Source: Flectonema sp. DT1601
Taxonomy: Eukaryota
Assembly: GCA_964019425.1 (NCBI GenBank)
Contig: OZ025790.1
Span: 1,240,001 to 1,304,000 of the forward strand
Direction: 5' to 3'
Length of the DNA stretch: 64,000 nucleotides
Shown: positions 6,204 through 53,551 of the stretch, piece after piece
How the letters are laid out: every line of letters begins with the position of its first letter
How positions within the stretch are numbered: the stretch's first letter is position 1
Notes under the pieces: generated by a model
What the model was told of the DNA's origin: nothing
The model's input: only the letters and a program-made list of their open reading frames with translations
Database searches by the model: none
Program-made: the position numbers and the translations under genes

Positions 6204-9200
6204 ATGGGGCAAAAAGCATCCTCCCAAACGGACAGCAAGTGGTTGTACGATAGTGGAGAGGATGAAGGAGATAATCACCCAGAGTTGACTAAAACTTTTA
6301 AGCAATACTTAAAAAATAACAGTTGTACATTCCTAGATTGCTTAGTGGGTGACAACCCGACAGACTCTCGATACAGAATAACATACAAGCAGTGGACCAT
6401 AGCGTTTGCGAAATTGTTAGAAAAAAACAAAGACATCGACGAAACATATAGAAAAGAACAACAAAAACTACGAGACAAAGAATACGCTTGGTGGTTTGGT
6501 GATAAACGCTGTCTCTTCCTACTTAATGAAACAGATCACAAGGAAACTTTTATGAATATCCGGGAAGCAGTTGTAAGACAACTCTGGGTTAATATGTTAA
6601 ACCTCGAACCTGTAGTCATAGGCCCAGTTGATGGCCAACAGCCAGATGATCGGATTATCGTATTCCCTACCGAATCTGATGAACCCTGTGTTTACAGAGA
6701 GGCCATCATCAGCTATGCAAAACTAAAAGACTACGTCTCCGTAACAGAGGGAGGCACGAAAGTTGCTGAGCGACTAGCTGTCGGACTTCCACACAACCAA
6801 TCAGTTGAAATTATGAGAAAGCTTTTGACCAAGCACATAAAGAGAGGTGGTAACCGTGAATTGATAGACGAATATAGTAATGTCCTCAAAAACAAAGGGT
6901 TTCTATCCCCAAAACAGTTGATAGAAGTTATTCCTGGATCCAAAGGCAGCATTTACGATAATGAAATCCAAAGTAAATTGAAGATCGTCCCCGGTAATAC
7001 GGAACTCCCTGAAAAAGATGTATTCTACATCACTGAGTATGACTTTAAAGATGCCTATTCTCAAGTAGTCGGTATTAACGTTTTCAAAGATAGTAAAGTA
7101 GGTATCTGTGCCAATAGTAACGCTTACAGTGGGTTCAACGACTCAATAGCAGGTGTTAGTGTATCTGATTTATTTAAAACTATGATACGCGATCCTCAAA
7201 TCGCCCAAAGCAGACAATATGACTACCAGTTGGAGTTTGCGCGTAACCAAAATTTAATTTCCGGAAAATCGTGGAACATGGTTACTTTTGTTTTCTTCTT
7301 AGTGGCGGTTATGTATACTTTTCAAGCAGACCGTGACATCGGTCGTTCATTCTATGCTAACTTGTCAATATTCGAAGGAATAGCTAATGACGAAGTTCAA
7401 AATGACGCAGAGCCTCGTTGGTTTCCTCAAACATACTTTGACACGGCCAACACGGAAGACTACTGGGTCTGGTTTGATAGTAAAATTGTAAATACATTTT
7501 GGGGTGAAGAAAATGAAACAACAGGCATTGATGTAACATACAGTACATCACAACAACTACTTGGTAGTGTAAAAGTTAGACAAGTTCGTCAGGCTTCTGA
7601 AAAGTGTAAAGGTCTTGGAGAAATGATGTTAAATTCAAGAGACTCTTGTAACAATCCTGGAGACACCAGAGCGTCTACTAACTTCCTTCCTTGGCAAGGT
7701 GTTAGAAATCCACCGACATCAGCAGAAGTTGACCTCCAACAAAGCGTCGACGGAAGTATCGCTGCCAGACGTTGCGGTGCCCTGGGTAAGTTCCGCGCTC
7801 AGAGTCCTGGATTAGACAAAGCTCGTACGATAACTATTGGATACTACTCAGATGATGGCCAGACAGGAAGAATCTTATCTCTGATTTTTAGAATTCTTGC
7901 AGAAGAACGAATGTACTCCAGCCCAGTGGAAGATCGCATTTTTGCGAAATGGGAAAGAGTTGATCCCAACAACATCAGAGCCTACGATGTGATAATTAAC
8001 TTGAAGGATGATGATCTTAAGGAACTCAAAAGACAACAACCAGATATCGATTATGAATCAAGAGAGCTTTACAGCGGTACTCGTTCATCGTGGTACATAA
8101 CTGATAATACTTGTTCTGATTGTGATAGTCTAAGGGATCTCGATATTAAAGAGAATTGGGATTCTGTTGTTGCTGAGTACCCTTTCAACATTAGAAGTGA
8201 ATACGGAAGACATTACATGTTCATGACAAGTAATCCTCCTCCTGATGAGGATGTCTACAGGAGGACTTTTATGAACCATCCAAAGGATATGTCGTCAGAA
8301 GAATCTATGTTTAGCACTCTAGACTCCTTTAGAATTAATAAATGGGGTGCTGTCTATTACGCATCGTTCCCTTCGCGTATTGTGGCTGCTACAAGAGGTC
8401 GTGAACTGGTTGGATCTGGAAGTAGCGTCACGAGTAAGAGATACATCGCAACTAAGTTAACTAAAGACAGTAAATTACTTGCTGACGTTTACCAACTTTA
8501 CAAGTCAATCTACTTCAGAGACTCTGCTATCAATGAAATTACCAAGTTTCACGCTGATAATGATTTTTATTTCGGTATGTTGTCGTTCCAAAACCTTTTT
8601 TCATCTGTTTCCATTTTTCTAAAATAAATATAAACAGCTGCCTGTAACTGGGTGAAGGAAAACGAGTACAAAGGTCACATCTGGCAATCTTGGATGAGAA
8701 GATCTGTTGAGTTCGACATGACCAGAAAAGAAGGAACCTACACTCGTAATTGTTACGATTCATGGGACGGTGGATTTAATTTTGAAGAGAAGATTTTCAA
8801 TGATCCAAAAACTGACACCCTCAAGGTTATTAAGTTTGGTAATCAAGATGCTGAATTAGTATTTGACAGACCTAGGTACCTGTTATCACTAGAGGCCGCT
8901 AGTCTTGGATCGCTCCCAGCAGCTGAACTCACCCGATACATGGAGCCTTGGGTATATCGTACTTGTGATGAGCTTGATGGAAGAGGATATGAGCTTATGG
9001 GAAAAGTTATTGACAACAGTCAACAGACAAGAACGCTTTATGGATGTAGTGGTTTTGGTACTCTTCTAAAGGTCGACGAAACTAAATTACAGGTCCTCGA
9101 AATTACTAAAATGTTGAGAACCAATAATTGGATAGACGCAGCCACTAGAGCTGTCATCGTTGAATTCTTTATGTTTGAACAGAATTCAGGTATCGTTACT

Positions 9201-11054
9201 CACGTCAAGTACCTCGTTGAAACAGCGTCGACCGGTGGTCTCGACGTTACTCAAACTGTCAACAGTTTTAAACAGTTCAAATTTAAGAATTTAGAAAGCC
9301 CTGTCGCATTCATCTTTTCAATTTGTATCATGTTGTTCTGTGCTGCAATTCTTTTAATGGAGTTCTGGACTGATTTTTATGGTCACGTTGTCGCAGAGAG
9401 TAGTACTTGGTATATGGAAGCATCAGCTTACCATGGAAACTTCTGTCCTCTTGTATCATGCTGTGGTTGTTGTCATAAAGAAGAACAAGCACCATGGGTT
9501 AGAGTAATGGGATGTAGAAAGGTTGCTAGATTCGTAGATATCCTTCTCAATCCAATTTTTATTTTCCGACTGTTGAAGTGGCTAATGTTCATCGCATGTC
9601 TACTATTCCGTAGTTACAATATGATCCTCGGTCGTTCTGCCACTACATGTACTGGAGCATGGCCGGAAGAGTTGGAATTAATATCGCATCTCACTCAAAT
9701 CGGTGACATAATTGAAGGATTCTTCGTTCTGATGCTATTCTGTTACCTCCTCGTTTACATGCAATTCTTCTCTGAGTCCTTTAAGCGTTTGGGTGACACC
9801 CTCGCACACGCCGTGTCGAACATCTTCGCGACTCTTGTCATTGTTCTTGTTTGCATCTTTGGATTTGCCTTATCGGCTTGGGTTGTTTACGGATCGCTAG
9901 TTGAAGAACATAAGGTGTGTAATAGAATGGTTATTATTGATAACGTTGTGAGTGAGTAAAAAAACAAATAAAACAAAACAAAACAAAACAGGGTCTTGTA
10001 AAGAGTGTTGGAACAACCATTCTTATGATGCTTGGCGATTTCGGAACTTACGAACAGATGGAAGAGGTTTGTAACAAATTTGGGGTTTTCATGATCAAGG
10101 GCGATTTTCTTTTTCTTCTAGCAGAGGTTTCCTTTGCGAAGAAGTACGAATATTTCTTTTCAGTCCAAGTTCAGGATGATAAATCCTTTACCGTAGTGTG
10201 AGCAAGTCATCCGACTACAACCGAAATTTTGTGTAAATTATATAAGCATTATAAATGGGGAAAAAAAATAAAAAAATAAATAACAGGTTCGACCTGAGTT
10301 CACGATGCCTTTCTTCTTGTTATTCTTCGTCGTAGCTACTTTGATCCTTTTCAACTTATTGATTGGTATCTTAACCACTGCGTATGGAATAGTAACAAGT
10401 GAGCAGTTCCGAACAGTGAAATACATCGATATCCTCAACCACGATTCTTCAGTTACTTCTTGGGGGGGATTCGAAGCGTTTACTTTAAAAACAAAAATAA
10501 TAAGGAAATTGTTAGTGATGGGTACAAGATTCTTAGACTTGGTTTGCTGTTGCAAAGAGAGAGAAGGTTTGGAGAACAATTATGCGAAATTCTGGAGACA
10601 GTACATTAAGCTACTGAACTACATGAACAGCGATGACTTAGCTACTGCGATTATTGGATTGGCTTCTTTCATTAATGAGTTTGAAAAAACTGGAAAGAAC
10701 TACTACGACGATGAGGATTCACCAAACCCGTCGATTATCGATTCTCATGACACTGTCAGAATCAGTACGATGGCCTTTCTCGATGAAGAACTTGGTTGCG
10801 CAGAACGTAGACGTCATTTTGAAAAGACTCTAGTTGAGCTGCCAGTTCATCATATTAACAGCTACAGAGCGAGTGCCTGGTATGATGTTCTCGTCCACCA
10901 CAATGAGTATAAACACAAGGTAAGCCTTTGGGCACAAATTGAGGAAGAACCAGTAGGTGGATTCGCGCGGATTAAACAAGCTCTCAAACAAAGGGAAGCA
11001 TCGATTGCGGCTGCTGCGGCGGCATCGTCAGGAACACTAAAAGAAAATGCGTAA
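6204..11054 (+). CDS. Polycystin-2 (PKD2/TRPP)-like cation channel, ~1496 aa; exons 6204-8574, 8638-9914, 9992-10066, 10287-11054
   Basis: PKD2-like motifs LLGSVKVRQVRQ, WIDAATRAVIVEF, pore MMLGDF (in the 75-nt exon absent from the ORF track) and S6 LILFNLLIGIL. Three GT-AG introns join the ORFs in frame. The first ATG (6204) gives MGQKAS, a myristoylation-like start, 9 nt after a pyrimidine-rich AG. Confidence 0.85.
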
Positions 11055-12521: not shown

Positions 12522-12552
<31 letters not shown>

Positions 12553-14526: not shown

Positions 14527-14739
14527 ATAGAGACGATTACCGTTATCTTTTAATTTTGTAAAATATTACGTGTCGTGTACATGTGCCATTTCTTTTTCAC
14601 GAACGCCTTTTTTCCCCTTTCTACTTTCTTACCCACATCTACATACACGATACCGTAGTGATTAGTTTTATTTAGTGAAATAGAATGATGGACATGTATT
14701 GTCTTTTTTAGTTATTACTATCAACCAGAAACAGAAAAC

Positions 14740-17280
14740 ATGGCTGCTCAGCGCTCCGAACAGAATTGGAGGGAACAACTAGGGTGGAGCAGTGACCCAG
14801 CATCTTTGGTTCAATATGAGACTAGTCAGTTGATCAATACTCTTCTTGGTAATAAACCATTAGATACAGCAACTGTTCATCATGTTCAACTTGTTGGGGG
14901 ATTGTTAGATATTGTGTTGTTGGAGAGAGATGGGTTTCATGATGCTGCAACTATTCAAGCAGCTGTAAAGACATTTGGATTCTTTATGAAGTTCCTTGTC
15001 AGATGTCACAACAGTAGACAAACACATCTCTTGAATGAAGTAGAGAGAGCAGTTGTTACAATGATGTACAACATATCATCAAATATTCAGGGGCAAGGTT
15101 CTGCCACTCATGAACAAATCGCACCGTACGCACCATTTCTTCTCCACGCGGCGTTTGTCCAGTTGAAAGCTCAGAAACACCCGAATTCTACGAAGGTATG
15201 TTCTCAAAGTATTTTCCCCATCAGGCGGAATAATTTTTTAGCAATTTTGAGATTAAGGAAGAGAGAGGTTTAAAAAAAATAAAAAACCCACAACAGGTAT
15301 TTAGCGCACCTCCGAAGAGACTCGGCAATGGCTGCAGCTTGGCGATTGAGGACCAGTACATTTGGTTGTGTTCTGCAATGCTGCCGCTGGTTGCTCCGGA
15401 ATACTTTGCACAGCTGCTGCGATTTAAGGAACAGGATGCTGACACGCGACTGCAGACTGCGTATGCCTACGAATTGTTGGAATATTCATTATTTTATTTG
15501 ATAAGGAGTTTTGAAAAACTTTATGCGGCTCCCCTAAATTTAAAAAGCCCAGCTAAACAAGGTTGTGCAGAACCAAAAGTTTCCCCGAAAAAAGTACTTT
15601 CCTTTCTGTCCATAATGGAACAAGATCCACCACCAAGCCCATCAGACTTTGCAGGAAACGACCACTGCGGTGTTTGGAAGTTCGAGGCTGCAACAGCGGA
15701 AATGCATGCAAAGAAAATGCTTCATTCGCTACAAATATTAAATAGAACTTTTCCGAGGGTGCTTGACAGCAGTCCGGGACGTTCGATGGTGGCGTTAACA
15801 AAAGTAATGACAATTAGAGTGAAGTATATTTGTGGAGTCCTTCATTGGATTTTAACAACCTTAGTATCTTGTATTCACACTTTATCGCCATTTGACGAAG
15901 ACTCTCTTGTGGTACTTGTCTGGCGCAATACAGTTGAATGTCTGACCAGCTGTATAATTGATTACGCAAAAGTCTGGAAAAACTTTTCAGCTAATTCAAA
16001 TATCGATTTTATGCTTCAACTTTTAAAAGGGTGTCTCACTGCTATCGCTGTTGAGGAAGCTTTTACTTCGTATCATCCACAGGGATCTCTTCGGGTTAAT
16101 CCTTTACCTAATTATTTAAGTCACGTCAGCATTCGAGATTCTGGATTCCATTTTGATGAAGTATGTCATTACATAGAACTGATAAGTTTATTTATTTTTG
16201 GAAGGATATAACAAAAAAAAAAAAAAAAAAAAACAGACCACCCAACGCGAGCTTGCCCCGTCAGCCTTTCCCATGTTAATGTTATTCACGCTAGCCCACA
16301 ACGAAACACTTTACAAGGCTTTTGCTGGTTTGGGTGATGAACCAATGACTTCTGTGGCTGTGAGGCCACCATTGGAGTTGTGCTTGGCAAACTTCTTGCA
16401 TGGATTATTTATGACTCATACAGATGTAGCGCATCATTTAGGAAGGGAACAGGACTTAAAAACTGCTACCGTTGTACCTATTCAGAATATCTTCAGAGGT
16501 ATTCACACAGTCTTACAGCAAATCAGTACCACTACGCAGTGGTCTGAAGTTTTTTGCTCTGGATTTGGATGCGATGGCAATACGTTGGCACCGAATTGGA
16601 AAAAAGCCTCCGACATCGCAAAGGGATTTGCGGCACTTCCGTTTTCAAGGAAAGTTGATGCTTCCCAAGTAGAAATGGTTAGTCAGAATGCCTGGTCGTT
16701 AGTGAGGTATTACTTTCAGTTGTCAATTCCGTGTGCTCCTACTGCTCCTCCAAGTCAAATTAGTTATTTAAAACCGAAGTCAGGATGGGATGATTACGAC
16801 GAATACTTTAGAGAGTTAGAAAGATCATCTGAACACTTACAAGGAAGGTCTCGTGGTAGAAGTGGTGATGATGGTCTTGATGGTATCCCTCTGCTTCCTA
16901 CTGACTTTGGGCTAAACGACGGTCCTGGTGATCGAGGCTATCGTCTGCATCAGCTACTGTCTTCTCATTTGAGAGGAATCTTAACCGTCATTCCGTACTT
17001 CCGACTTCTATTCGTAATCCTTAAAAGAGAATGTTTACTCAAGCAGTGCGCTCACTATTGCTCTTCTCTCGCAGACTTAATTCTCGTGTCGTCTCACAGC
17101 CACGGTGTAGCAATTCCGTTTCTTCGAACCAGTCTTGCTTGTTATGAACACACAGAAAGTTATGACCTGGCACTTGCGACTGTTGATCGTATCGGAAAAA
17201 TATTCCTTTCATTAATGGACCTTCCCAGTGCTGCTTTTGTTCAAGCTCATGGAAAGAAATTAGCCATGAGTGGCAGCTAG
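14740..17280 (+). CDS. Hypothetical alpha-helical protein, ~787 aa; exons 14740-15195, 15297-16160, 16237-17280
   Basis: Two GTATGT...AACAG introns (15196-15296, 16161-16236) join three ORFs in phase 0. No domain recognised. Confidence 0.75.
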
Positions 17281-20548: not shown

Positions 20549-20649
20549 CCCCCAACAGTTTACCCTTAGTCAATTATATCATAGTTAACTCTGGTCTAAC
20601 ATGAATGTATTCACACCTTTTAATCTCCCTCCAGACATTTTAATAAAAA

Positions 20650-22688
20650 ATGAGCGATTCGAGTGAATCCGAAGACAGTCCTCTGTTTTGTGAACGTCCT
20701 GAATGGAATGATGTAACACCAATGCCACTTCCTGAGTCTGAGAATCCCGTTGTGAGTATTGATTACTCGGATGATTTTAAAGACGCTCACAACTATCTGA
20801 GAGCGGTAATGGCAACAGGTGAGAAAAGTGAAAGAGTATTAGAGTTGACAGGAGCAGCAATTAAGTATAACCCTGCTAACTACACTGCCTGGCAATACAG
20901 AAGAGAAACAATCGCTGCGATTGATAGCAGCGTCGAACAGGAACTTGATGCGGTTGCGATGCAACTTTCATATTTTCCAAAAAATTTTCAAATATGGCAT
21001 CACCGTCGAGAGTTATTGAGCAGATTAGAGAGTCCCGGAAATGAGCTGACCGTAATTGAAATAGTGTTGTCGAAAGATGCGAAAAATTATCATGCGTGGG
21101 CTCATAGAAAATGGGTCGTTTCTAAATTTGATATCGTCGGAGAGAAGGAAGAACAGGTATGGGTGTATTGTTCTACAACTGAAAAAAAAACCAAATGTTA
21201 GGTGGAACGTAAAATTAATTTTAAAAAAATCAAACAGTACGCTATGTCACTCATCGAGGAAGACGTGAGAAATAATTCAGCTTGGAACTACTTAAACTTC
21301 GTCGTGGAGAGAAGAGATTTATGTATTGGAACTAAGGTATGATTATGAGAATACACCACCCCCACTGGGACCAAGGAACACTCACTCTTAGTGTATCCTA
21401 TTTAGGAACTGTGGGGTAGACAACAGACAGATACAACAACCTGATATTTTGATACCGGAATTAACTCCACGGTTGCTCTCCTACTTGTCGTGGAGATGGT
21501 TACCACCAGACCCCCGGGAGAGTTACTTTTCACGATACACAACACCCCCACTGGGACCAAGGAACACTCACTCTTAGTGTATCCTATTTAGGAACTGTGG
21601 GGTAGACAACAGACAGATACAACAACCTGATATTTTGATACCGGAATTAACTCCACGGTTGCTCTCCTACTTGTCGTGGAGATGGTTACCACCAGACCCC
21701 CGGGAGAGTTACTTTTCACGATACACAACACCCCCACTGGGACCAAGGAACACTCACTCTTAGTGGATCCTATTTAGGAACTGTGGGGTAGACAACAGAC
21801 AGACACAACAACCTGATATTTTGATACCGGAATTAACTCCACGGTTGCTCTCCTACTTGTCGTGGAGATGGTTACCACCAGACCCCCGGGAGAGTTACTT
21901 TTCACGATACACAACACCCCCACTGGGACCAAGGAACACTCACTCTTAGTGTATCCTATTTAGGAACTGTGGGGTAGACAACAGACAGATACAACAACCT
22001 GATATTTTGATACCGGAATTAACTCCACGGTTGCTCTCCTACTTGTCATGGAGATGGTTACCACCAGACCCCCGGGAGAATGCTTTTTACGTTAGACAAC
22101 AACCCCACTGGGAACAAGGAACTCACTCTTGTATTCAATTTGGAGGCCCCGGAGAATACTTTTTTACGTTATCGTCGATTACTTTTTCTATTATAAATAT
22201 TTATCATTAATGTGGTGTTATTTCTGTTTAATAATTTTTTCATTTTTAATAACAAAAAAAAAAAAAAAAAATACCAACAGGACGAAAAAGACGTAACTGA
22301 AGAAAAGTACGTAAATGTACGCCACAGGGAAGTCGAGAGAGCATTTGAAAAAATGACATGCGCTCCTGGTAATGAATCTGTTCATAATTATTTGATAGGA
22401 AACTTAAATCCGAAATCGAAATACGCAGAGGCGGTATTCTTAAAATCGGCACCAATTGCTACAGAGAAACTACTTGCCATGCACAGTGACACTACCTGTT
22501 GGGTCAAAGCATCCCTTGTGGACATCTTTGAGGCTGCTGAAGACTTTAAAATGTCACCGACTGCCCTTCCAGATATCTGTGAAGGTGAATCCCGACCTTT
22601 CCGTGACCGTATTATTAGTTTGTGTTCAGACCTATCTAGAATTGATCCAGTACGTAGTAAATATTGGAATACTGTGATGAGTAGTTAG
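20650..22688 (+). CDS. FNTA: Protein farnesyltransferase/geranylgeranyltransferase-I alpha subunit, ~337 aa; exons 20650-21156, 21238-21336, 22281-22688
   Basis: PPTA repeats NPANYTAWQYRR, PKNFQIWHHRR, DAKNYHAWAHR, DVRNNSAWNY (middle exon) and PGNESVHNYL, plus C-terminal IDPVRSKYW. Confidence 0.92.
21351..22170. repeat. Intronic tandem array: four near-identical 186-bp units plus a degenerate, internally deleted fifth
   Basis: cccactggga recurs at 21361, 21547, 21733, 21919 and 22104. Only a few substitutions separate the four full copies. The array lies in FNTA intron 2 (21337-22280). Confidence 0.97.
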
Positions 22689-23186: not shown

Positions 23187-25217
23187 ATGTCTGGAAAAAT
23201 AAAAAGAGGTCGACCAAGAATGTGGTGGAAAAAGTGGATTCGTATGAGTAAAATGTGGATGCCTCCAGAGGTTGTTTCAGCACAGAGAGCGGCACTGACG
23301 GAGTGTACTGCTCAGTTTGATTTTGGAATGAGGCATCGCTTACAATCGAAATCACCTCGAATCTTATGTGAGTCTACAAAAAGAGGAGAGTTCGATATGA
23401 GTATACCGATCTTTAAAGGTAAACCTCTCTATGATATAAATCAATCTACCTCTGACAAGGAATTCATTAAAAAGGGTGGCTTCACATTCTTTGGTGTCGA
23501 AAGCAGCGAGCGTTTCAACAAAGTCTACAGAAGAATAATTGCATCTTTATGCCCGCACATGACTACTTCAGACCTACTAAGAGAACCACCACAACTTATT
23601 ACGGCTCAAGTATCAGGTAAATATGCGAATAATTGGGGAGCCATATTCATGATAAATACTAACAGTGGACTTGGCAGCAAACTTACTTTATCAGCCGCCC
23701 ATTCTTTATGTCATATCTCAACTGTCGATACTCGAATCATTGAGTTGAGGAGGAGTTCCACGAATCCACTCTTCCCAACTAATTCTACGTGGCACCAGTC
23801 TGTTTTAGATGTGTATAGGATGCCTTATAAGGGTAAGCTGTTAACTTTATTTAATAACCTAAAGAAATATGGTTTTATCAACTACTACGGCATCGAACAA
23901 CAACATTATAATAACGTTCCTGCTATACTGCCAGCTGCTGCTATGCTTGCGAGGGATTTTAAAAGGTGTAGCGAACTGTATGCGTTGAATGGTGCACTTG
24001 CAGGTCGTAGACCTCGAGACATACACGCGGCTTGGAAACGAGGAAGATTAGAAATGGATAACGACGCATTCCGTAAACTATGTACTTCTGGTTCTAATGA
24101 TGGACGACCTCATTACTTTTTTTATTCACTGATGTCAACAATTGGAGAGAAACCAAACTGGAAACATTGCGCTTCCGATAGACCACCTGAAGTGTGCGCT
24201 CAAGGTCTCCGTATGTTTCAAGAAATGATATATAACTACATGACATCAGTTAGAATAGCCTCAGGATTGAGAGTTATTGTTGGAGACCTCGTTCGTCAAG
24301 AAGGAACTGATTTGGTGGAATACGTAACAACTGAAAATATAAATTCCTATTCGGTCTACGACGTCGTCCTTCCGGTTCTAACTTTTCCATACATTCGAGA
24401 GAAAGTTAAGTTTCCTAAACATGATATCAACGAATCATTCGTGTCTGAGCTTCTTAGCGATTACGGTATCCATCTTGAAGCTGTATGTGTTGTTTTTTTT
24501 TTTTATTTTGAACGTATAAATTTACCCTTTTTTTTTTTTGCATTTAACAAGTATTGTAAGAACGAAAAAGAATGTTGGCAGCACACGTAAACCTCCTTTA
24601 GCTTTATCAGTTTAAGTCGGTTCACGGTTTCGTGCACAAACAAAAAATCACAGTGTTATATCATTATTTTCTGTATAGTTGAAGTTAAAGCCAATTCTTT
24701 TTCCACAAATGTATAATAATAAAAACAGCTACTGAACGATAGATTCCTCGCCCACCATTGGAAGAATTCATTTGGAATATCCAGAGTTGAGGAACGCTAT
24801 AGAAATATTGTAGTCAGACCACTAAATTTATCCTACACCCTATCCGACAGTAACTTAACTGGCATCTTGACTACAGGCAGTTGGAAGGACACAATTGGTG
24901 TTACAGCATCACTACTTCAAAAGAGAAAGCGACTTGTGGTTAAGGCAGTCTTACCTTCTGAAAGTTGTATGTCGTCGATGATGAGAGAGGTTGCAATGTC
25001 TAGGTTTGGTCATGGTGTTCCAAAAATGTGGCAATTCATGAACTTACGTCCTGGTACTCAAGTTGAAGCTGACACAGAAATTGAAGGAAACTTATCCATT
25101 GAACAGATTGACGACTATCTCAAAGAGTTTAGCAAGACTGATCCTGAACTCGCAGAACAAATTCAACGAATGCAAACAGGTGACGCGTTGCCTTCTAATT
25201 CAGCCTCTGCAGCATAA
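23187..25217 (+). CDS. TruD/Pus7-fold pseudouridine-synthase-like protein, probably catalytically inactive, ~594 aa; exons 23187-24482, 24729-25217
   Basis: LKKYGFINYYG, FQEMIYNYMTSVRI, VIVGDLV, YSVYDVVLPV, YRNIVVRP and LPSESCMSSMMRE match the TruD C-terminal motifs. No GxKD motif was found. The intron is 24483-24728. Confidence 0.75.
24566..24702. mobile_element. MITE-like dispersed repeat family A, copy 1 (intronic)
   Basis: Highly similar to 31646-31783 (ttggcag.acacgtaaacctcc, tcagtttaagtcggttcacg, cacaaacaaaaa, agtgttatat, agccaatt), with short imperfect terminal inverted repeats. Confidence 0.6.
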
Positions 25218-25438: not shown

Positions 25439-25647
25439 CAAGTACCAAATAGAGTAACTGAACACTTCTCACAGAACACAATACAACATGGATCCCTCCA
25501 TTACAGCTGCTATGGAGAGAGGAGGTAGTGAATGGAGTCAAGTACCAAATAGAGTAACTGAACACCTCTCACAGAACACAATACAACATGGATCCCTCCA
25601 TTACAGCTGCTATGGAGAGAGGAGGTAGTGAATGGAGTCAAGTACCA
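25439..25647 (+). repeat. 100-bp tandem duplication spanning the acceptor AG, ATG and first 20 codons of the downstream gene
   Basis: 25441-25547 matches 25541-25647 with one mismatch (25466 t, 25566 c). The 9-mer caagtacca occurs at 25439, 25539 and 25639. Confidence 0.97.
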
Positions 25648-27069: not shown

Positions 27070-27309
27070 AAGCTTTTCTGTAATTGTATTTAAGGTTAAA
27101 AAAAAGTAAAACACCCAGCTATCCACTAACTTGACTCAGTCTTCCCTACTGCCTCTAAAATAAAAAAAGGACTGAAAACGTTTTATTCAACCTTTCCCGT
27201 AGATGATTTGTAGCAATTACCAAACTAGTGGTATTTATATGTTAAAAAGTATGTTGGTGTGGTGTTTGTTATTTATTACAAAAACAGGTTAGCTACAACA
27301 ACATGATTG

Positions 27310-31645: not shown

Positions 31646-31783
31646 AGAAAATTGGCAGGACACGTAAACCTCCATTAGCTTTTCTCAGTTTAAGTCGGTT
31701 CACGAGTTTGGTGACACAAACAAAAACATGAACAAGTGTTATATTACTGTTTTCTGTTGTTTAAGTCACAGCCAATTTATTCT
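31646..31783. mobile_element. MITE-like dispersed repeat family A, copy 2 (intergenic)
   Basis: Homologous to 24566-24702. The ends aaattggc and gccaattt are perfect 8-bp inverted repeats. Confidence 0.6.
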
Positions 31784-33144: not shown

Positions 33145-33945
33145 TTATATTTTCTCACGCCTTGCCTCATTCTCTTAATAAGAGTGCAGCTGAAGGGGCT
33201 GCACAATGAGCAGCTCCCCGTCTGGCTCTGTTCTGTTTGTTGTCGGATTCGTGTTTTGGATTGAAGGACGTGTAAAGAAGTTCCTATTCATAATCATGCT
33301 ATCAAATACAGAGTGAAGGTACTCACTTTACACGTTTTCCTTCAAGGATAGACACCTCGTGACACTCGTTGACGGATCTCACGGTGATGTTCTTGTCACT
33401 GAGGAGTTTAATTGAAATGCTATCTTCACACCAAGGCTGATATCTTGGTGTGAATAATGTGTTGTACAGCTGAATTGTGTTTTCATATTCTCTCGCCTCA
33501 TTCTCTTAATAAGAGTGCAGCTGAAGGGGCTGCACAATGAGCAGCTCCCCGTCTGGCTCTGTTCTGTTTGGATTCAGGGACGTGTAAAGAAGTTCCTGTC
33601 CATGTTAATACTGATGAATAAAGAGTGAGAGGGTTTCATTTTGGTGCCTACTCTTCCACTCTTCCTGGATGAATGGTAATGTTCTAATTACTGAGGAGTT
33701 GAAGTGAATTGTTAACTTCGCACCGAAGTGTGAAGATAACAATAAGGAGTTGTATTATCCAACTGAATTGTGTTTTCATATTCTCTCGCCTCATTCTTAA
33801 TAAGAGTGCAGCTGAAGGGGCTGCACAATGTACGCAGCTCCCGTCTGGCTCGTTCTGTTTGTTGTTTGGATTCAGGAACGTGTAAAGAAGTTCCTGTCCA
33901 CAATAATACTAATGAATAAAGCAGTGAGGGTACTCACTTTGCCTG
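33145..33945. repeat. Degenerate tandem array of ~3 units (periods 331 and 291 bp) with a conserved core
   Basis: gtgcagctgaaggggctgcac occurs identically at 33184, 33515 and 33806. The units also share gcctcattc and acgtgtaaagaagttcct. A possible older partial copy lies at ~32975-33050. Confidence 0.92.
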
Positions 33946-34923
33946 TTCTCAAGGGAACTTTCGTAACTGACCACCTAATAATGAGGTTTAACAAAGTTGG
34001 ATTAAATATTGTGCAAATTCCTGTCCACCTGAGGACTCGTCAAATTTAGGAAGGCGACTGAAGGAGTACTTCTAGATTCACGGGACTTGTTTGTTTATGG
34101 AAAAGGACAACTGACTTTCGCTTAATCAAAAGTTGTTTTTTTTTACGCGATTTTTCGTGCTATTTTTTTTTTTTTTTTTTTTTTACCTCGAGGCCCTAAC
34201 GTCCTAGCTCCGAAAGAATTTAAATTCTTACAAAAGAAATGTCTAACTACTTTTATACTAAGATAATATTATATAAAAAAGAAGAGAAAAGAGAACAAAA
34301 TTCGCTGAAGTAACTGCATTTTGTTTTAATCTGGAATCCTTCGAAGGGTTTCTGTCATGTGTTTTCTTTTCTGCAGCTACTCAACGTGAAAAAAAAAAAA
34401 GAACAAAACAGCAGAAGAAAAAGAAAAAAAAAAAAAAGCAGCAAAAAAACGACTACTGATTCGTTCAATGATAGATTTCAGAGATCACCGGCACTCTAAA
34501 TAAAAATAAAAAAAAAAAAACGAGACGAATGGGAGAAGGAATCCGTGTAACTTTAGCCACCTTCAGATTGACATATCTCTTGTGTGAAATAACTACATGT
34601 ACTGCCTCTGCTTTTCCGAGTCTTATGGAGGAAGTGATAACTGTGTCTGAACAATGAAAATAAGAACATAAAATCCGAACACATTTTTTTTTTTTTTTTT
34701 TTTTTTTTCCTTCTTCCCCTTTCGAACAGTTGAGGACGCCTGGAAGTCTATCCGACGAAAAAAGAGAAATTTCACTGTTGAAAAAAAAAAAAAAAAGTTT
34801 TAAAAAAAAAAAACAGAGGGATTTCTAGTTCCGATTGTAGTTCGAATATTATTTGAATGATGTAGCAGGTGAGATGATTTTAATTTAAATTATTTCACAT
34901 ACAAGGTAAGTAGTCTTCCCAAC

Positions 34924-35610
34924 ATGTACAATCAATCATACTGTGCTCCTCCACCAGAATATCCTGTAGGGTATTGTAATGTAAATGATAGTGAAGGATA
35001 CTATCAACAATGTGAATATGAAGCCTGTTATGATTCGTGTGATCCTTGCGGTGATATATACGACGCTGGTTGTCAAGTCAGTGTTGAAGAGAGAAATATG
35101 AGGGAAATGGCGATACTGAGATCGAAATTAGGATTACCCCAAATGACTTGTGTAGCTGGGAGGAGTCATTCAGAATATGATAAAGTTAGTCCAGAGAATG
35201 CTGCGAGAATCAGAGAAATAAGAGATAGATTAGGAATCCCGATGATGAAATCAATGGACGGTCAGTTAGACACTCGTGGTGATGGTGGTGACGATTTCGC
35301 AATGCCATCTCCAGAAGACTTGGGAGCAGCGATGTTCAACAAGCATGGTGCCCCGCATGCTGAAAAACCCTTCTTGCAGCCGATTCCTCAGCCAATAGTT
35401 TATACCCAGCCAGTAGTTCAGAGACCACGTCAAGTATCACAACCGGCTTTGTATTATCAACCCGCTACCCGTCCAAACACAGAGTGGGAAAAGTGGGATG
35501 CTCGTGAAGCTCAAGCTCCAGGGACAGTCACTGCCGAGCAATTGGGAGCGACAAGTGCTTACAACACATCCCTCAAGAAACAGCATCAACATGCTGCAGT
35601 TCAGTGGTGA
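34924..35610 (+). CDS. Hypothetical protein (228 aa) with a Cys/Tyr-rich N-terminus and a two-fold internal motif
   Basis: Clean ORF in coding-like sequence. Internal similarity between ILRSKLGLPQM and EIRDRLGIPMM. Confidence 0.75.
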   Translation: MYNQSYCAPPPEYPVGYCNVNDSEGYYQQCEYEACYDSCDPCGDIYDAGCQVSVEERNMREMAILRSKLGLPQMTCVAGRSHSEYDKVSPENAARIREIRDRLGIPMMKSMDGQLDTRGDGGDDFAMPSPEDLGAAMFNKHGAPHAEKPFLQPIPQPIVYTQPVVQRPRQVSQPALYYQPATRPNTEWEKWDAREAQAPGTVTAEQLGATSAYNTSLKKQHQHAAVQW

Positions 35611-36246: not shown

Positions 36247-38887
36247 ATGTCTAATGACGGGCTGAGCACGACAGATTCATCACAGCCCGCCGGTTCATTA
36301 AAAAAATCTGAAAGTGATGTCGATGATAACAAAATGTGTTGTCACTGCAGCATCCCATTCAGAGATGATGATGATGAGAAAGAGAGACAGAGAAAGAGAT
36401 CCATCGTTTTACCGTTTTCGTTAATTGCAGCAGCTGAACTCTGTTTTGGTATACTTTGGATTTTTGGAAACGTTTTACACCCAACGACTATTGCTATATT
36501 AATCGGAGGTGGGGTCACTGCTTCTTCATTACTTTATATGTACGCTTCAAGAAGTGCGCCGTTAAATTTGATCGAAGGAACATTCGTCTTTCAACTCATA
36601 GTAGTTGCAATGTTAGACTGGTCGACAGCTTCACGTGGATCTCAAGCTCATTGGCCCCTTGCGATACTCGTACTTGATGGGTTGTTGACTAGTGGTGCCA
36701 GAGCACCGGTAATTAAATCATCCGTCGTAAGTCTGTTTATCTGGTTGTTTGTTAGAGCGTCAGAAGATACTTTTAGATGGGGTCTGTGGGACATATTACC
36801 ACAAGACGGAGAAACTGAACGCGGGTGTCCAGTTCCACCATCTCGAATCGGGATAGCAACAGCGCTGGGAGACATCGTTAGTTCGACAATAGTTTTTTAT
36901 TTAGACTTTTACATGACTCAAGGATTCGCCAACGGCATGCGAGCAGAAAAAGAAAAAATGTCCCAAGCAGTTAAGCTTTCAAACAGCATTGCTCGATCAT
37001 TGGCTCTCTTTGATTTGGTTGAGGCAGAAAAGTTGTTAAAAAAGGCTATTGTCATAGAAGGAGAGGAGTCAGACTTGACTGAAGCCTTCGAATTACTTCT
37101 GAGTAACCTCCATAAATATGAACCTTACTTACCGAGAGCACTATTTGAACAGAAAAAGAAGGGTAAATCGCCTTCCATATCAAACGCTGTTATTCCATTT
37201 CACGATGATCATTCTGGGAAGGACGTAACCGTATTGTCGAATTCAGGAGTCTACAATCCTACAGCTCCTTCAGGAACTGTCGCAATGGTATTCACTGATG
37301 TACAGAGTAGCACAGAGCTTTGGGAGGCTTCAGCCTACGCGATGTCAGAAGCATTGCAGCTCCACAATGCTGTCATTCGATCAGTGATTTCTCTGCATTT
37401 TGGTTATGAGGTAAAGACCATCGGAGACGCATTCATGATTGCGTTTTCAACGGCAAGGTTCGCTTTAAGATTCTGTATTGAAGCTCAGGAACAACTAGTC
37501 ATTCAGCACTGGCCTTCAGAACTATTAGAAGTTTCGTCTTATCAGAGACTCATAGAAGGTAATACTCAGGTATGGAATGGACTTCGTGTTCGGATGGGAG
37601 CTCACTATGGACCAGTTCGAGTTGAAGAGAATCCAATAATAAAACGAACGGATTATTTCGGACCGACAGTCAACCGCGCAGCTCGCGTTGAATCAGTTTC
37701 TGTGGGAGGATTGATAGCTGTCACTACTGAGTTCTTAGCTGAAATCTTAATTTCAGAATTCGAAATCGTCAAACAAGCTCCTGTCAGTGTTGACTTAAAA
37801 GGAATAGGGATAACATTAATCCACGGTATCTTACCAAAGAGTTTATCAATCAGATTAGTTGGGATTATTGAAAAAGGGGGTGGTCGGAAACTGACTCTCG
37901 ATACCATGTCACATCGATCTAGTAAAAGATCAGTTATTCGTGGGATAAGACAAGACCAAGTCCACACAGTAGGTACAGTGATGCATTGTAGAACTGGAAA
38001 GAACAGTTCTGGTGATCTGGTATCGGAATTAGAATTCATGCAAGATACCTGCGACCTATCTGATGGTTTGATTATGGGTGTACTCGGATCTCTTATAATG
38101 ATATGTTGGAATGGTGTTGGTAATCCATGTCCTGCACACACCACTCACGCTTGTCGCTTTGGAGCTAAAGTATCACAAGCAGGTAGGTCATCGTGTGGAA
38201 TAGTTACGGGACCTCTGACACACTTAACAGTTGGTAAGACTCAAAAGTTCGTAACGTCAACAGGTTGGTGTGAAGAACTTTCAAATAAACTCTGCACCCT
38301 CGCATTTGAAAATGACACGATGATCTTAGTATCAGGCGTACCTGAGTACCCATCATCACAACAAGACCCAATAGTGTCGGCTTACCTCCGCCCAGTTGGG
38401 ATTTGGACAGTAAAAGGTACCAACAAAACTATATCAATATGTGAACTTCATAAGTCCTTCGTATCTGTGGACAGGGTGTGTGATGATTATTATTTTATGA
38501 ATAAGCAAACTTTCTTTGTAACCAACAACAATAACCACCACAACAACACAGTGGGGCTTTACAGATGAAGACGCTCGTGACAATCACCAATTGTGGAGTA
38601 CGGAATTTCGTGACGCTTTTGAGAAGTCAGGAGAGAACAGTAGTTGTCTTTTACGATTCATGGACGATGTTAGCAGTTGTCCACTTACTAAGGAATATAT
38701 AACTGCACTTCAGAGTGGTAGGAGACCTTTGTATAACAGAGGTTGTTCTATTTCTGAGAGTCATATTTTACCATCTCACCTCTCACCTTGTTATGATGCT
38801 CCTGATAGCACGTCAGTTGTTAGTTTGCTTCAACACACTGTTTCAGTTAATGAAACGTGTTTAGTTGATAATAATAATTTGTTCTAA
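36247..38887 (+). CDS. Multi-TM class III adenylate cyclase with a second degenerate cyclase-like domain, ~854 aa; exons 36247-38475, 38552-38887
   Basis: VFTDVQSST, YEVKTIGDAFMIAF, GLRVRMGAHYG and DYFGPTVNRAARVES (Lys/Asp adenine-specifying residues). The phase-0 intron 38476-38551 joins the 38591 ORF. Confidence 0.9.
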
Positions 38888-41405: not shown

Positions 41406-41624
41406 TCTTCTACACAACAACAACCTCACAATACAATATGTCGAACGATGAGAAGGTTACAACAAAATTACCATCTTCTTTTTTTTTTTTTAAAGGGGTT
41501 TTTTGATAATAAATAAAAATAGTTGATTTTTTTTGTTATAATTGTGTAATAATCCCCGTTTCTTTATTTTTTTTTCCCCCCCTCAACCCCCCAGCTTTTA
41601 TTTCATCAAAAAAAAAAACTAAAC

Positions 41625-46032: not shown

Positions 46033-46127
46033 AACAACTACAAATATTATTTTCAGTCCAATTTTTTTATTTTTAAATACCTAAAAGTTGTTACTGTTGT
46101 TTTACATTGTCAAAATTTTCCTCACCC
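46033..46127. repeat. Short dispersed repeat family B, copy 2
   Basis: Colinear similarity to 20455-20550. Confidence 0.6.
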
Positions 46128-48105: not shown

Positions 48106-48733
48106 TTGTTATTTCACGCAAGTTAAAATACATTCTGTGAAGATATCAACGTATCAAAGTTTGTATCTGCAAGCTGTCTTTAGGTCTCTTTATATTTACG
48201 GTACGTTCATCGTCTTCGAAATAAAACTGAAAATTAAAAACTTTTTTTATTCAGTTTTTTCTATTTAATTGTTACTTTACGTATTTTTTATTCTTTTTTC
48301 GTCGTTGTGAGCCTTGTGGAAGGCGTTGAGTCTCCTCTTCTCAGTCTGATTTTTAATAATTACACTACTTTTACACCAATTTTATGTCCCTCTCGAGTTT
48401 TTTTTTTTTTTTTGTCACTCTTCATTTATTGAACGAGAAAAATTAAAATTTAATATTTTTTTGTGTTTTTTTTATTACTACTTCCCCTTATCAATTTACC
48501 CTCCTAATAGAAATGTCTTAGTGCATTTTTTTTTTTATTTATTTCAATTAAAAAAAAAGTAAGTACTCACTACCTCGTTTGAGTAGGAATTTCATTTTAT
48601 CACATATTTTCCTTAATTGCAGACACATACGCGCTGTGATGTATTTTTTTTGTACGACGTGTTGTGTGGTATTATTATTTTCTCTGTACCAGTTCTGTAA
48701 TCAAATAGGAATTAATTTTTTTTAAAAAAAAAG

Positions 48734-49912
48734 ATGGAAAGAACCGAAGTTCTATTCAAAATTCTCGTCGTCGGAGATGTTGGAGCTGGAAAAAGTAGTT
48801 TCGTAAAGAGGTACGCAAAGGAGAAATGGGTTCACAATTGTAAGCCAACCATCGGTGTAGATTTTGTACTAAAAGAAATAACATTAGATTGTGGTGCTCT
48901 AGTTCGAGTCCAGCTCTGGGATATTGCCGGACAAGAACGCTTCAAAAGCGTCACCAGAATATATTATAAAGAAGCTGTAGGTGCCGTAATTATGTTTGAC
49001 TGCACTAACCAAGACTCACTTAATGGAGTTAAAGACTGGAAGGACGACCTTGACAACAAGGTAACAATGTCAGACGGTTCATTAATGCCTTGCCTGCTAC
49101 TCGGAAATAAATGTGATTTACCTGACGATACTCACATCATTGACCAAGATGGGTTATCGAAAAAAGCAAAAAAAGACAGCTACCACACCGGAAAATTCTG
49201 CTCTGCAAAATCTGGAGAGGGTATCGAAGGGAGCATGAGAGACTTTATACAACACATATTCGATGCGACGCAGAGAGCACCAGTCAAAGCTAAGAAGACA
49301 GTTGAGGAGAAAACGCCTATTGCGTTAGCTCCTTCAAGCGCTGGAAAACCCGTCAGGAATTATAAAATAATTGTGATGGGTACGAGAGGTTCAGGTAGGT
49401 CTTCCTTAATCAAGAAGTTTGTCCATGATACCTTCTCAGCAGTCATGAAGACAACATCATCTCTCTGGGTTGAGACCACCGAAATGGAACTGCGGGATAT
49501 GTCGAAGATAAAAATTCAACTCTGGGATTTACCAACCCAACCCAAAGCAGACAAGTTAAATACTTTATACCACAAGGATGCTGTTGGTGCTATCTTAGTA
49601 TACGACGCGTCTGATCCAAGTAGTCTCAAGAAAGTAAAATTAATGAAGCAAAGCTTATCATCAAAACAACCAACCCTTCCAGTTATACTGATCGCTAATA
49701 AGATTGACCTTCCAGAGGCTACGTTACTCGATGGGAAGGCAGCTGATGAGTTGTGTGCGCAGTTTTCATTTGTTAGTATCGTAGACACTTCTGTTCTTGG
49801 AAATCAGAATGTTTCAGAGCCATTTCACACTCTCTGTAACCACATTTCGAAAACTAATCCAAAGGCAGGCATTACTACTGAACCTGCTAAGAAGAAGTCT
49901 TCCTGTTGTTAG
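48734..49912 (+). CDS. Tandem double-Rab protein: Rab32/38/29-like domain plus degenerate Rab domain, C-terminal CC
   Basis: Domain 1 has GDVGAGKS, PTIGVDF, WDIAGQERF, NKCD and SAK. Domain 2 has GTRGSGRS, WDLPTQ and NKID. The protein ends KKKSSCC. Confidence 0.92.
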   Translation: MERTEVLFKILVVGDVGAGKSSFVKRYAKEKWVHNCKPTIGVDFVLKEITLDCGALVRVQLWDIAGQERFKSVTRIYYKEAVGAVIMFDCTNQDSLNGVKDWKDDLDNKVTMSDGSLMPCLLLGNKCDLPDDTHIIDQDGLSKKAKKDSYHTGKFCSAKSGEGIEGSMRDFIQHIFDATQRAPVKAKKTVEEKTPIALAPSSAGKPVRNYKIIVMGTRGSGRSSLIKKFVHDTFSAVMKTTSSLWVETTEMELRDMSKIKIQLWDLPTQPKADKLNTLYHKDAVGAILVYDASDPSSLKKVKLMKQSLSSKQPTLPVILIANKIDLPEATLLDGKAADELCAQFSFVSIVDTSVLGNQNVSEPFHTLCNHISKTNPKAGITTEPAKKKSSCC

Positions 49913-51254: not shown

Positions 51255-53551
51255 ATGCCAGTATCTGTGGATACATCCCCCCGTAGATGGTATATGTCGA
51301 TGTCATCTCCTGAAGGACAGCGTCAGTTTAACGGAGATGGTATAAGTGTCTTAGGAGCACCTGGAGGACCAGCCAGTAGATCACTGTCACCAGCCAGAAA
51401 GAATGCTGCGAAAGCCTTACAAGTAACGGGCATCACTGATATGGATTTCTTAAACGGCAGATACGATCTTCAACAAACCGGATTATTCGTTCAAAGACAA
51501 GGAACTGCTGTATTACAATTCAGAGATGGTCGATGGAGGTTTTCACCACAGTCAAACGACGGTTGGTGGGCCAGCTCACCGACTCTCCTCGGTCAGTGGT
51601 CAAGAGATACCAGTGCTGGTGATGCGATCACTGGATTATATCCTTTTGTAGCAGCCGTTGAGACAAAGGAACCACTTCTACTAATAAATACCGAAACAGA
51701 TATGCATCATCCGCAATCTGATAAGGCTTCAGAAATAAATAGTCTCATTCAGCAATTAGAAACCGCCAAACTACGATCAGAACACGCTGGACAACTCCGC
51801 CACGAACTTGACATAGCCCAACAAGAAAGACACACAGAGCGATCCTTATATCTTAAAGACATTGCTAATGAAAAGGATGCCACTCAGCATTACATAAATG
51901 CGTTGCGAAATGAACACTACTCAGAGCTGTCTCAGGTGACGTCCGAGAAGCACAAAATAACATACGAAGCCAATGAAATAATAAATGAACTACAACACAA
52001 CATCCTACAAGTCCAACAGAATGAAGGCCGTGCTGTGTTGTTGTACGAAGAGGCTGAGGCATATCTACAAATATTTTCATTCGCAATGACTCCATTGCGG
52101 AGTCAAGTAGAAGCAGGTTTGCGCGCTGCTCTATCAGAGAGACTGGCCCACGAAGAGACGGTTAAGGAAATAGCACTAAAGAGTCAACAACTACAAATAG
52201 CTGAAAACAACAGAATCACATTGGAATCTGAAATAGAAACAGAGCGGGGGGCTCATCATAAAACAGCTCTCGGAGCTGAACACTTAACTCTTGAGTTGGA
52301 GAATTGGAGGTCTGAAGTTAGGGAAACTATGTTATTGGAACAGGAAAACTATGAATCTCGTGTACGTGCAGCGGAAGATAAAATGAACTCAGCAATCGCT
52401 GCAGAACAACAAGTCATAGCAATAAACAATCTACAGAGAGAAGAGCTGAGTAAACTGACAGGTCAGCTTCACTCAGCAGATGATGAGAAAGTAATTGCTA
52501 TCAATCACCTCAGAGATCAAGTTGAGAAGCTTTCTAGAACAAGAGTAACTGAAGACAAAGTCAAAGAAGAACTCTTAAATGAAGTAACAGACCTTCGACT
52601 AAAGGCCAGGGGAATGGATGATATTCGAAGCCAGAGTATGTGACAAAATAAAATATTACAATCGTAACTATAAAACAACAACAAACCCCCCAACACAGAT
52701 ATCGGTGGTCGTGTAGAATGCATCGCCGTTGCAGCGAAGATGCCGATGAAGGAACTCAAACAGGTATTTACATAAATAGATTTCTAATACTTCCTTCTGA
52801 ATGATTCGATTTGTTAGTTGTCTCTCTTGTGGAATACTCAAAGCTCTATTATAATAAATAAAACAAAAAACAGAAACCAGCTGAGCTTGGGGAACGAATT
52901 GACGAAATCGCAGCAAACATCGTAAAGAGAATGGAAACCTTCGAAGAGGAATTGGCATCAGCGGATGTGAAACACCTCGAGTTAGAGAAAGAAATGTCAC
53001 TTTTACAGCATCGACACCAAACAGCTCAAAATCAAGCAGCAGAAGCAAGCAGGTTTGAGTCACAGGTTGAAGAGGAAAAGCAAAAACTGATTTGCAAAGA
53101 AGAGGAATTACATTTCATCAAAGAAAGTCAAGAAGCACTTCAACAACAATTGAACGAGACGCACGACGCTATGAACGAAGCGGCAGTCGAAATGGAAAGT
53201 CTTCGAGAAAAAGTTAAGAACTCAGAAGTTGAACAAGGGGTAATCAAGTCACTCGCTGATCAGGTTAAAGAATTGGAATCAAAAGGTGACATCCACAGCT
53301 CTTTACGAATAGCTGAAGATCGATTAGTTAATTTAGAACAAAATGCTCAAGTTGAAAAAGATAATTTAATGAAGAGAATTCATGACTATGAATCAGTTCT
53401 TCCTAGTGGAGTTCAACCACCTCTTGGAGATGGAGGAGGAACAACTGTTATAGTAGAGCCACTCTCAATGTTTTCACAAACTGCTCCATCCATTCCATCG
53501 ACTGTTAGTGCGATGGGTCTCAATCATCATCAGCAGCAGCAGCAACAACAA

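Follow-up and report, generated by a model that had tools for sequence, protein, structure and literature searches.

On balance we favour a reading in which an A-rich, G-free tract of ~25 nt followed by ACAG replaces the polypyrimidine tract in the cis introns of a marine diplonemid protist close to Flectonema neradi, and in which leader acceptors would use different, looser, G-poor sites of mixed U, C and A. The DNA analysed is one 64-kb window, in which 21 genes were modelled, six of them containing the 11 predicted introns.

Source of the DNA and gene models

The diplonemid origin suggested in a first-pass annotation is supported by protein comparisons, which identify the window organism as close kin of F. 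neradi (85–88% protein identity, versus about 71% for the cluster holding Diplonema japonicum). All 21 modelled genes lie on the + strand, as do all ORFs with a Pfam match (only + ORFs were scanned), and the longest − ORF spans 163 aa. Start codons have homologue support in three of the 21 genes (14740, 20650 and 54374). Within the window, Rfam gave no match at gathering score and no leader RNA gene was found, a 21-nt leader-like core matching nowhere with fewer than four mismatches.

Predicted cis introns carry an A-rich tract and ACAG

Splicing out the 11 introns yields stop-free proteins for six of six genes. The introns, together with two candidates in untranslated regions that the first-pass annotation does not list, are the following.

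8575..8637, + strand, intron 1 of a polycystin/PKD-channel-like gene (6204–11054): GTATGT...AAAATAAATATAAACAG; frame restored
9915..9991, + strand, intron 2 of the PKD-like gene: GTGTGT...(AAAAC)n AG; frame restored, and a weak polycystin-2 match reaches the donor
10067..10286, + strand, intron 3 of the PKD-like gene: GTTTGT...AAATAACAG; frame restored, and a weak Ion_trans match (E 0.004) lies at the start of the next exon
15196..15296, + strand, intron 1 of gene 14740–17280: homology to F. neradi protein P0131
16161..16236, + strand, intron 2 of gene 14740–17280: pure A run + CAG; homology to P0131
21157..21237, + strand, intron 1 of a farnesyltransferase alpha gene (20650–22688): homology
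21337..22280, + strand, intron 2 of the farnesyltransferase alpha gene: 944 nt, containing a 186-nt tandem repeat; homology
24483..24728, + strand, intron of a TruD-like gene (23187–25217): frame restored; a weak TruD match (E 0.018) stops at the donor, model position 358 of 412
38476..38551, + strand, intron of an adenylate/guanylate cyclase gene: A/C-rich tract; frame restored, no homologue pinning
52636..52698, + strand, intron 1 of a coiled-coil/polyQ gene (51255–54025): A/C-rich tract; frame only
52764..52873, + strand, intron 2 of the coiled-coil/polyQ gene (51255–54025): GTATTT donor; frame only
54245..54282, + strand, candidate UTR intron of 38 nt: GTTTGG...A run-CAG; motif only
27249..27287, + strand, candidate 5′-UTR intron of 39 nt: GTATGT...ACAAAAACAG; motif only

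The terminal dinucleotides are GT..AG in all 11 predicted introns. The 3′ ends, as first proposed and as re-read here from the coordinates, are ACAG in 11 of 11 and AACAG in nine, with an invariant A at −4. The donors all fit the GTDTK pattern that had been described for them, with GTATG predominating (seven introns, followed by GTGTG in two and GTTTG and GTATT in one each), and position +6 is T in 9 of 11. A YTRAY branch-point motif occurs within the last 60 nt of 4 of 11 introns, at scattered positions. By their GT..AG ends and U1-type donors, the 11 introns are predicted to be U2-type, but they lack a polypyrimidine tract. They do not fit the non-canonical intron class of euglenids and hemistasiids, all 11 being GT–AG without specific pairing of their ends.

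Positions −23 to −4 of the 11 introns contain A 0.72, C 0.14, T 0.14 and G 0.005 (pyrimidine, Y, 0.28), in agreement with the earlier description of an A-rich, T-poor tract. In the background before 1177 intergenic + strand AGs, A is 0.31 and G is 0.18, so the A content of the introns lies clearly above that of the local non-coding sequence (Mann–Whitney p 1.3e-7), a comparison that the first-pass annotation had named as one that could refute its claim. The tract does not reflect general intron composition, because intron bodies have A 0.30 and T 0.32. The weakest tract is that of 8575..8637 (A 0.55), with a U-rich stretch just before it. A cis-type rule derived from these same introns (A at least 0.5 and at most one G in −23 to −4) is passed by all 11 introns, compared with 52 of the 1177 intergenic AGs and 7 of the 265 intergenic CAGs; the candidate at 27249..27287, with its short A tract, fails this 20-nt rule. 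Furthermore, the stretch free of AG extends at least 29 nt in all 11 introns, compared with a background median of 14.

To control for circularity, four junctions were ranked by homology alone against all open-frame GT/GC..AG alternatives. Against the F. neradi transcript protein P0131, 15196..15296 ranks first of 69, with a gap-free junction, and 16161..16236 ranks first of 19; the gene that holds them, 14740–17280, belongs to no Pfam family, and the search for homologues yielded diplonemid ones only. Intron 21157..21237 ranks first of 34 with every homologue set, including the Lacrimia, Namystynia and D. papillatum proteins, and 21337..22280 ranks first of 15 against these closest homologues and third of 15 when 20 homologues, mostly distant, are summed. 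Judged by these alignments, the four junctions are fixed by homologous proteins independently of the ACAG/A-tract motif, and their tracts have A 0.60–1.0 and no G. The remaining seven introns are based on frame restoration and weak profile continuity. Those of the PKD-like gene are unpinned because no longer homologue of its exon 1 was present among 3404 candidates. A metagenome scan with a two-intron gene confirmed none of 110 stretches.

Sequence before start codons is depleted of G

The zones before the three start codons with homologue support contain the following candidate leader acceptors.

14700..14739, + strand, zone before the homology-supported ATG 14740: candidates 14711 (U-rich), 14728 and 14734 (aaacAG), none with a cis-type tract
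20610..20649, + strand, zone before the farnesyltransferase start: candidate AG 20634, with a C/U-rich, G-free tract
54334..54373, + strand, zone before a serine carboxypeptidase start: candidate AG 54363

Before the nearest AG upstream of each of the 21 ATGs, Y is 0.64; the corresponding values are 0.51 in the AG background (p 0.001) and 0.28 for the cis introns (p 1.8e-5). G is 0.06 versus 0.18 in the background, and A is 0.30 versus 0.31. When the sequence is instead anchored on the ATG (−40 to −11), Y is 0.608 versus 0.550 (p 0.06) and G is 0.089 versus 0.168, with none of 2000 random draws equally low in G. The longest pyrimidine run before the ATG averages 10.7, no longer than the background value of 12.0 (p 0.86). 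The robust pre-start signal is thus G depletion, and the pyrimidine excess is modest, with p from 0.001 to 0.06 depending on the test. Pre-gene AGs follow short, G-poor sequence of mixed U, C and A, near the T-rich intergenic background. The first-pass annotation had placed pyrimidine-rich tracts before these AGs on the strength of seven quoted strings; all seven are present, and Y does exceed the background when anchored on AG, but the seven are a favourable pick from 21 (their mean Y is 0.73, whereas the nearest AGs of the full set average 0.64) and no clear polypyrimidine tract emerges.

Of 225 loci retrieved with the carboxypeptidase alignment, 80 were retained, none of them a clear close relative by bit score; leader-like 5′ ends were present at 4 of the 80, all hemistasiid-like. 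Three of these four leader-bearing, metatranscript-like contigs of hemistasiid-like homologues have AGs inside their 5′ UTRs (25–42 nt), so the AG closest to a start codon would often not be the acceptor.

Cis-type sites are absent upstream of most genes

When the intergenic sequence upstream of each gene is considered in full, a cis-type AG of any kind is missing for 9 of the 21 genes (one of these, 985, is truncated by the window edge) and a cis-type CAG for 16; a cis-type CAG lies within 100 nt upstream of only one gene in 21. The upstream gaps of genes lacking cis-type sites include gaps of 98–550 nt. None of the 43 AGs that lie no more than 45 nt from an ATG reaches the cis model score, which is not far from the background, where about 6% pass (73 NNAG sites; 1177 AGs).

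In D. papillatum, essentially all mRNAs bear the leader, and genes form one-strand clusters (PMC10161547). If universal leader addition can be carried over from D. papillatum to the window species, the lack of a cis-type CAG upstream of 16 of 21 genes means that most leader acceptors would not be A-tract sites. Cis and leader acceptors therefore likely differ, since the A tract is real at predicted cis sites and absent before most genes. Of the two acceptor codes put forward in the first-pass annotation, the A-rich cis tract, mostly missing before genes, stands, and the leader side is weaker than had been claimed.

Comparison with known systems

The statements in this section refer to the available text of the papers cited. 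The A-rich tract, GTATG donor and CAG acceptor are not new: they have been published, from RNA-seq, for the canonical introns of D. japonicum, which has U2AF1/2 (Thakur et al. 2025, PMC12621601). The introns described here are of the same type, with A dominant in the last 20 nt and the commonest base at the site of the pyrimidine tract, GTATG, CAG and seemingly rare YTRAY, and both organisms belong to the Diplonemidae. The available text of that paper contains no analysis of leader acceptors ('spliced leader' is mentioned 0 times and 'trans-splic' twice). It reports that S. specki has 98% canonical introns and keeps the pyrimidine tract, and that the A signal is weak in L. lanifica and R. humris. 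In Euglena gracilis, a euglenozoan that likewise combines many cis introns with leader trans-splicing, a non-standard tract and CAG, the same C-rich tract serves cis and trans sites (Gao et al. 2024, PMC11170887), whereas here the tract is A-rich and the two kinds of site appear to differ. Given the pyrimidine tract of S. specki, the weak A signal of L. lanifica and R. humris and the single C-rich tract of Euglena, we read the A tract as not required in all diplonemids.

In Schistosoma mansoni, trans acceptors are more U-rich and have longer pyrimidine tracts than cis acceptors (PMC5832876). This is a weaker precedent for the contrast, a difference of degree inside one pyrimidine code, whereas the cis sites of the window swap pyrimidines for A. 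Trypanosomatids share the one-strand gene clusters and add their leader at an AG, but have only three intron-containing genes, whose introns carry pyrimidine tracts, and branch selection in this group is believed to depend on guidance from the downstream tract (PMC11613528, PMC13601561). In contrast to trypanosomatids, the pre-gene tracts of the window are short and barely above background. The literature searched, which did not extend to one key supplement, yielded no comparison of cis and leader acceptors.

Alternative explanations

An explanation that we consider less probable, yet weighty, is that the A tract, although a genuine cis signal, is unrelated to the choice between cis and trans. 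The tract would then serve short-intron definition or branch supply, the upstream U1 donor would decide, and leader acceptors would be weakly constrained, G-poor AGs; a donor-decides rule for cis versus trans comes from nematode work. Consistent with this explanation, pre-gene sequence departs from background chiefly in its low G, and cis-type sites are not depleted on the sense strand: the raw deficit of cis-type ACAG (5 of 92 on the sense strand against 26 of 139 on the antisense strand) is gone after composition control (p 0.2–1.0). Moreover, Euglena shares one tract (PMC11170887) and kinetoplastid cis introns have pyrimidine tracts (PMC11613528), at least in the available text of these papers, so a second code would be unneeded. 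What this explanation leaves unaccounted for is that the tracts differ (A 0.72 versus 0.30) in two reactions thought to share U2AF.

It is improbable that a single code operates, with leader acceptors also being A-tract CAGs located farther upstream and the AGs near start codons being 5′ UTR sequence. Such a code would accommodate the A-tract ACAGs located 91 nt ahead of 54374 and 107 nt ahead of 34924, as well as the frequent position of nearest AGs inside the UTR in related transcripts, and the G-poor zone could itself be UTR. However, the upstream absence of cis-type CAGs from 16 genes and of any cis-type AG from nine speaks against it, and the gaps of 98–550 nt without cis-type sites must contain an acceptor if transcription is polycistronic.

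It is also improbable that the tract is mainly mutational, with A runs growing at intron ends, in the absence of any dedicated reader, because G, AG and U are weakly selected against there. The genome is indeed rich in A and T homopolymers (in 25.6 kb of intergenic + strand, 47 runs of A and 59 of T reach 10 nt or more), but all 11 intron ends are A-rich despite a T-biased sense strand (T 0.376, A 0.285), several tracts are mixed A/C rather than homopolymeric, intron bodies are not A-rich, and exclusion of U would be a signal in its own right.

Pairing of an A/C-rich 3′ end with a G/U-rich 5′ end, as in euglenid and hemistasiid non-canonical introns, is extremely improbable and was rejected: although GTATGT and ACAG ends are complementary in composition and terminal pairing is described in the available text on hemistasiid introns (PMC12621601), own ends pair no better than mismatched ones (permutation p 0.58–0.95, with energies averaging −2.5 to −3.8 kcal/mol). 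In 10 of 11 introns, predicted pairing is lower within the tract than across the intron on average.

Proposed mechanism

Under the favoured reading, with an A-tract signal at cis acceptors and looser G-poor sites for the leader, the U2 spliceosome would excise these introns, and U1 would pair with the GTATGT-type donor, defining the short intron across its length. U2AF35 would read the CAG, and the A tract would act as an AG-free, weakly structured landing zone. A diverged U2AF65 or a paralogous RRM protein would bind this zone, which would supply adenosines for branching with no YTRAY consensus. As a consequence, internal acceptors would engage the leader machinery poorly, and their poor competition would reinforce, rather than replace, a choice set by the upstream donor. 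The A tract may be a derived trait of the Flectonema/D. japonicum lineage within the Diplonemidae that reinforces this choice. A-rich intron 3′ ends may also occur in Dictyostelium.

A full split of 3′ splice-site recognition seems to us rather unlikely. Here intron ends would be committed to U1-dependent cis-splicing by a protein that reads the A tract (a neofunctionalised U2AF65 paralogue or a poly(A)-type RRM protein), canonical U2AF would handle leader acceptors, and a swap of 25 nt alone would switch the reaction. Leads to such a factor are the diplonemid-gained OG0019132 (DIPPA_35898), annotated 'U2af large subunit A' and present besides the canonical OG0001114, and an expanded PTB-like family (PMC10161547). 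OG0019132 does not track the A tract, because it is present in S. specki and Hemistasia, yet absent from R. humris (PMC10161547).

Implications for splice-site choice

Wherever a spliceosome both joins exons and adds a leader, how it chooses between these reactions of shared AG chemistry is an open question, and diplonemids are the hard case, having trypanosome-like polycistrons yet being rich in introns. Because 11 of 11 predicted introns end in an A run and ACAG and most genes have no such signal upstream, the splicing machinery likely uses separate marks for intron removal and leader attachment. With the A tract already in print for D. japonicum, the added value is limited to the cis/leader contrast and the extension of the tract to the Flectonema lineage. 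Acceptors that differ sharply within one genome would make the choice between cis and trans directly testable, and the contrast is also relevant to the way in which U2AF or a substitute could recognise an A tract.

Acceptor sites of the predicted cis introns

The first-pass annotation proposed 11 cis introns in the 64-kb window, to which every count refers. All 11 begin with GT and end with AG at the predicted coordinates, and their removal yields stop-free proteins in six genes. Because the junctions may have been picked by motif, all open-frame GT/GC..AG alternatives were ranked by similarity to homologous proteins, with the following results for four introns:

15196-15296, forward strand, cis intron, rank 1 of 69 alternatives
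16161-16236, forward strand, cis intron, rank 1 of 19
21157-21237, forward strand, first farnesyltransferase alpha intron, rank 1 of 34
21337-22280, forward strand, second farnesyltransferase alpha intron, rank 1 of 15 with the closest homologues, 3 of 15 when 20 mostly distant homologues are summed

For the remaining seven, the basis is reading frame and weak profile continuity only; a search for homologues of the polycystin-like gene (6204-11054) yielded none. As far as sequence can show, the 11 introns are real.

In the 11 cis introns, positions -23 to -4 are 72% A, with C and T at 14% each and G at 0.5%. Ahead of 1177 intergenic AGs, A stands at 31% and G at 18% (p = 1.3e-7), and intron bodies have an A content of 30%, which confirms the annotated A-richness as distinct from the local background. 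A dominates from about -26 and occupies -4 in 11 of 11 introns, and each acceptor is preceded by at least 29 nt free of AG (background median, 14). A cis-type rule derived from the 11 introns themselves (A at least 0.5, at most one G) selects all four homology-pinned introns, with zero G, and 7 of 265 intergenic CAGs. The A-rich cis tract is thus far above chance.

Several other features were observed. The farnesyltransferase alpha model P0134, derived from the D. papillatum genome, ends at residue 202, within a few residues of where the window gene has its second intron (21337), hinting that this intron position may be common to both. A 186-nt unit, repeated 4.2 times in tandem (21353-22130, 97% match), fills most of that 944-nt intron. 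Two candidate UTR introns of 38-39 nt (27249-27287 and 54245-54282) have a donor and an A-rich ACAG, and A-tract ACAG sites lie at 34411 and 34816, upstream of the gene at 34924. An element of ~125 nt, a MITE-like repeat, occurs in two diverged copies, one in the TruD-like intron (24575-24697) and one intergenic (about 31652-31780), with 109 of 157 alignment columns identical and TTGGC...GCCAA inverted ends in both. The longest intergenic gap (33161-33876) holds a dispersed unit in three diverged copies about 300 nt apart.

Sequence composition before start codons

By a fixed rule, the AG nearest to the ATG in the 21 genes follows sequence with a pyrimidine fraction (Y) of 0.64, compared with 0.51 for background AGs (p = 0.001), with G at 0.06 versus 0.18 and A at 0.30 versus 0.31; in two thirds of the genes (14 of 21) it reads YAG (p = 0.027). 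It is an unreliable guess of the leader acceptor, because among 80 fetched loci, four, all hemistasiid-like, start with leader-like sequence 25-42 nt 5′ of the ATG, and three of these have AGs within the 5′ UTR. Anchored on the ATG instead, positions -40 to -11 have Y of 0.608 versus 0.550 (p = 0.06) and G of 0.089 versus 0.168, with 0 of 2000 draws equally low; the same composition signal is absent farther upstream, and pyrimidine runs before ATGs are no longer than background. The AGs before genes had been described as following pyrimidine-rich tracts. A modest Y excess stands, but "polypyrimidine" is overstated. The seven AGs quoted are a favourable subset of the 21 genes (Y 0.73 versus 0.64). 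Pre-gene sequence is best described as a G-poor mixture of U, C and A, not a polypyrimidine code.

The start context itself is A-rich (52% A at -10 to -1 of the 21 ATGs). For the gene at 25588, a 100-nt tandem duplication (25439-25647) takes in both the pre-start zone and the first codons, similar to the gene starts bounded by repeats that are reported from D. papillatum.

Probable contrast between cis and leader acceptors

An AG with a cis-type tract is absent from the whole interval between the previous stop and the ATG in 9 of 21 genes (one cut by the window edge), while a cis-type CAG is found nowhere upstream in 16 of 21 and within 100 nt of the ATG in only one. The contrast is independent of choosing the correct AG. 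D. papillatum carries a leader on essentially all mRNAs and has its genes in one-strand clusters (PMC10161547); if the window follows this pattern, A-tract sites cannot account for most leader acceptors. The originally proposed difference between cis and putative leader classes is probably real, but "polypyrimidine" overstates the trans side. The inference reaches as far as a difference between the classes and does not extend to a function for it: sense-strand cis-type sites show no depletion once composition is controlled, and cis-like AGs make up no more than about 6% of the intergenic total in any case.

Comparison with known systems

Protein identities place the source organism in the diplonemid family Diplonemidae, near Flectonema. 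The carboxypeptidase at 54374 shares 85% identity with a protein whose 90% cluster includes Flectonema neradi transcripts, and 71% with a cluster that includes D. japonicum and D. ambulator; identity to D. papillatum is 60%. The protein of the gene at 14740 shares 689 of 787 residues with F. neradi. In the latter gene, nine F. neradi residues are missing at about 17030 and extra residues occur at another point; by sequence, this is not an intron.

For the cis introns the original observation holds, and most of it was already in the literature. In the available text of Thakur et al. 2025 (PMC12621601), RNA-seq gives A as the commonest tract base in D. japonicum, weak A in L. lanifica and R. humris and a pyrimidine tract in S. 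specki; GTATG donors, CAG acceptors and U2AF1/2 are reported, and leader acceptors lie outside the analysis described there. Euglena has a single C-rich tract common to cis and outron sites (PMC11170887), Schistosoma trans sites are richer in U than cis sites (PMC5832876), and kinetoplastids keep pyrimidine tracts in cis introns (PMC11613528). A cis-versus-leader acceptor comparison for diplonemids was not found in the open-access literature, although Additional file 1 of PMC10161547 (introns, UTRs), outside our scope, may hold one.

All 21 modelled protein genes lie on the forward strand. Two tandem Rab/Ras GTPase domains share a single ORF (48734-49912), and pieces resembling, by eye, a broken leucine-rich-repeat gene lie amid repeats close to the window end (62238-62740).

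Proposed mechanism

U2AF65 favours U-rich RNA, and the AG is read by U2AF35. Most likely, an ordinary U2 spliceosome here uses a derived 3′ signal, in which CAG and a tract rich in A and devoid of AG would act together with a strong donor of the GTATGT type; structure prediction finds the cis tract weakly paired. The tract would supply branch adenosines and may be bound by a diverged U2AF65 or related RRM protein. Candidate factors are OG0019132, a diplonemid-gained orthogroup annotated as U2AF large subunit beside the canonical one, and an expanded PTB-like family (PMC10161547, supplement file 5). OG0019132 is no more than a lead, because its distribution (D. papillatum, S. specki and Hemistasia, but not R. 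humris; same file) does not follow the A tract. A dedicated second factor is unlikely, and pairing of intron ends was rejected on testing.

Elsewhere, dedicated proteins recruit the nematode SL1 snRNP (PMC11229312), U2AF35/65 and SF1 roles in kinetoplastids are described as incompletely defined (PMC13601561), and trypanosome polyadenylation is coupled to leader addition. A role for the class difference in the choice between cis and trans splicing is possible, if doubtful; as a by-product of the derived signal, and possibly a selected one, the leader machinery would use internal acceptors poorly.
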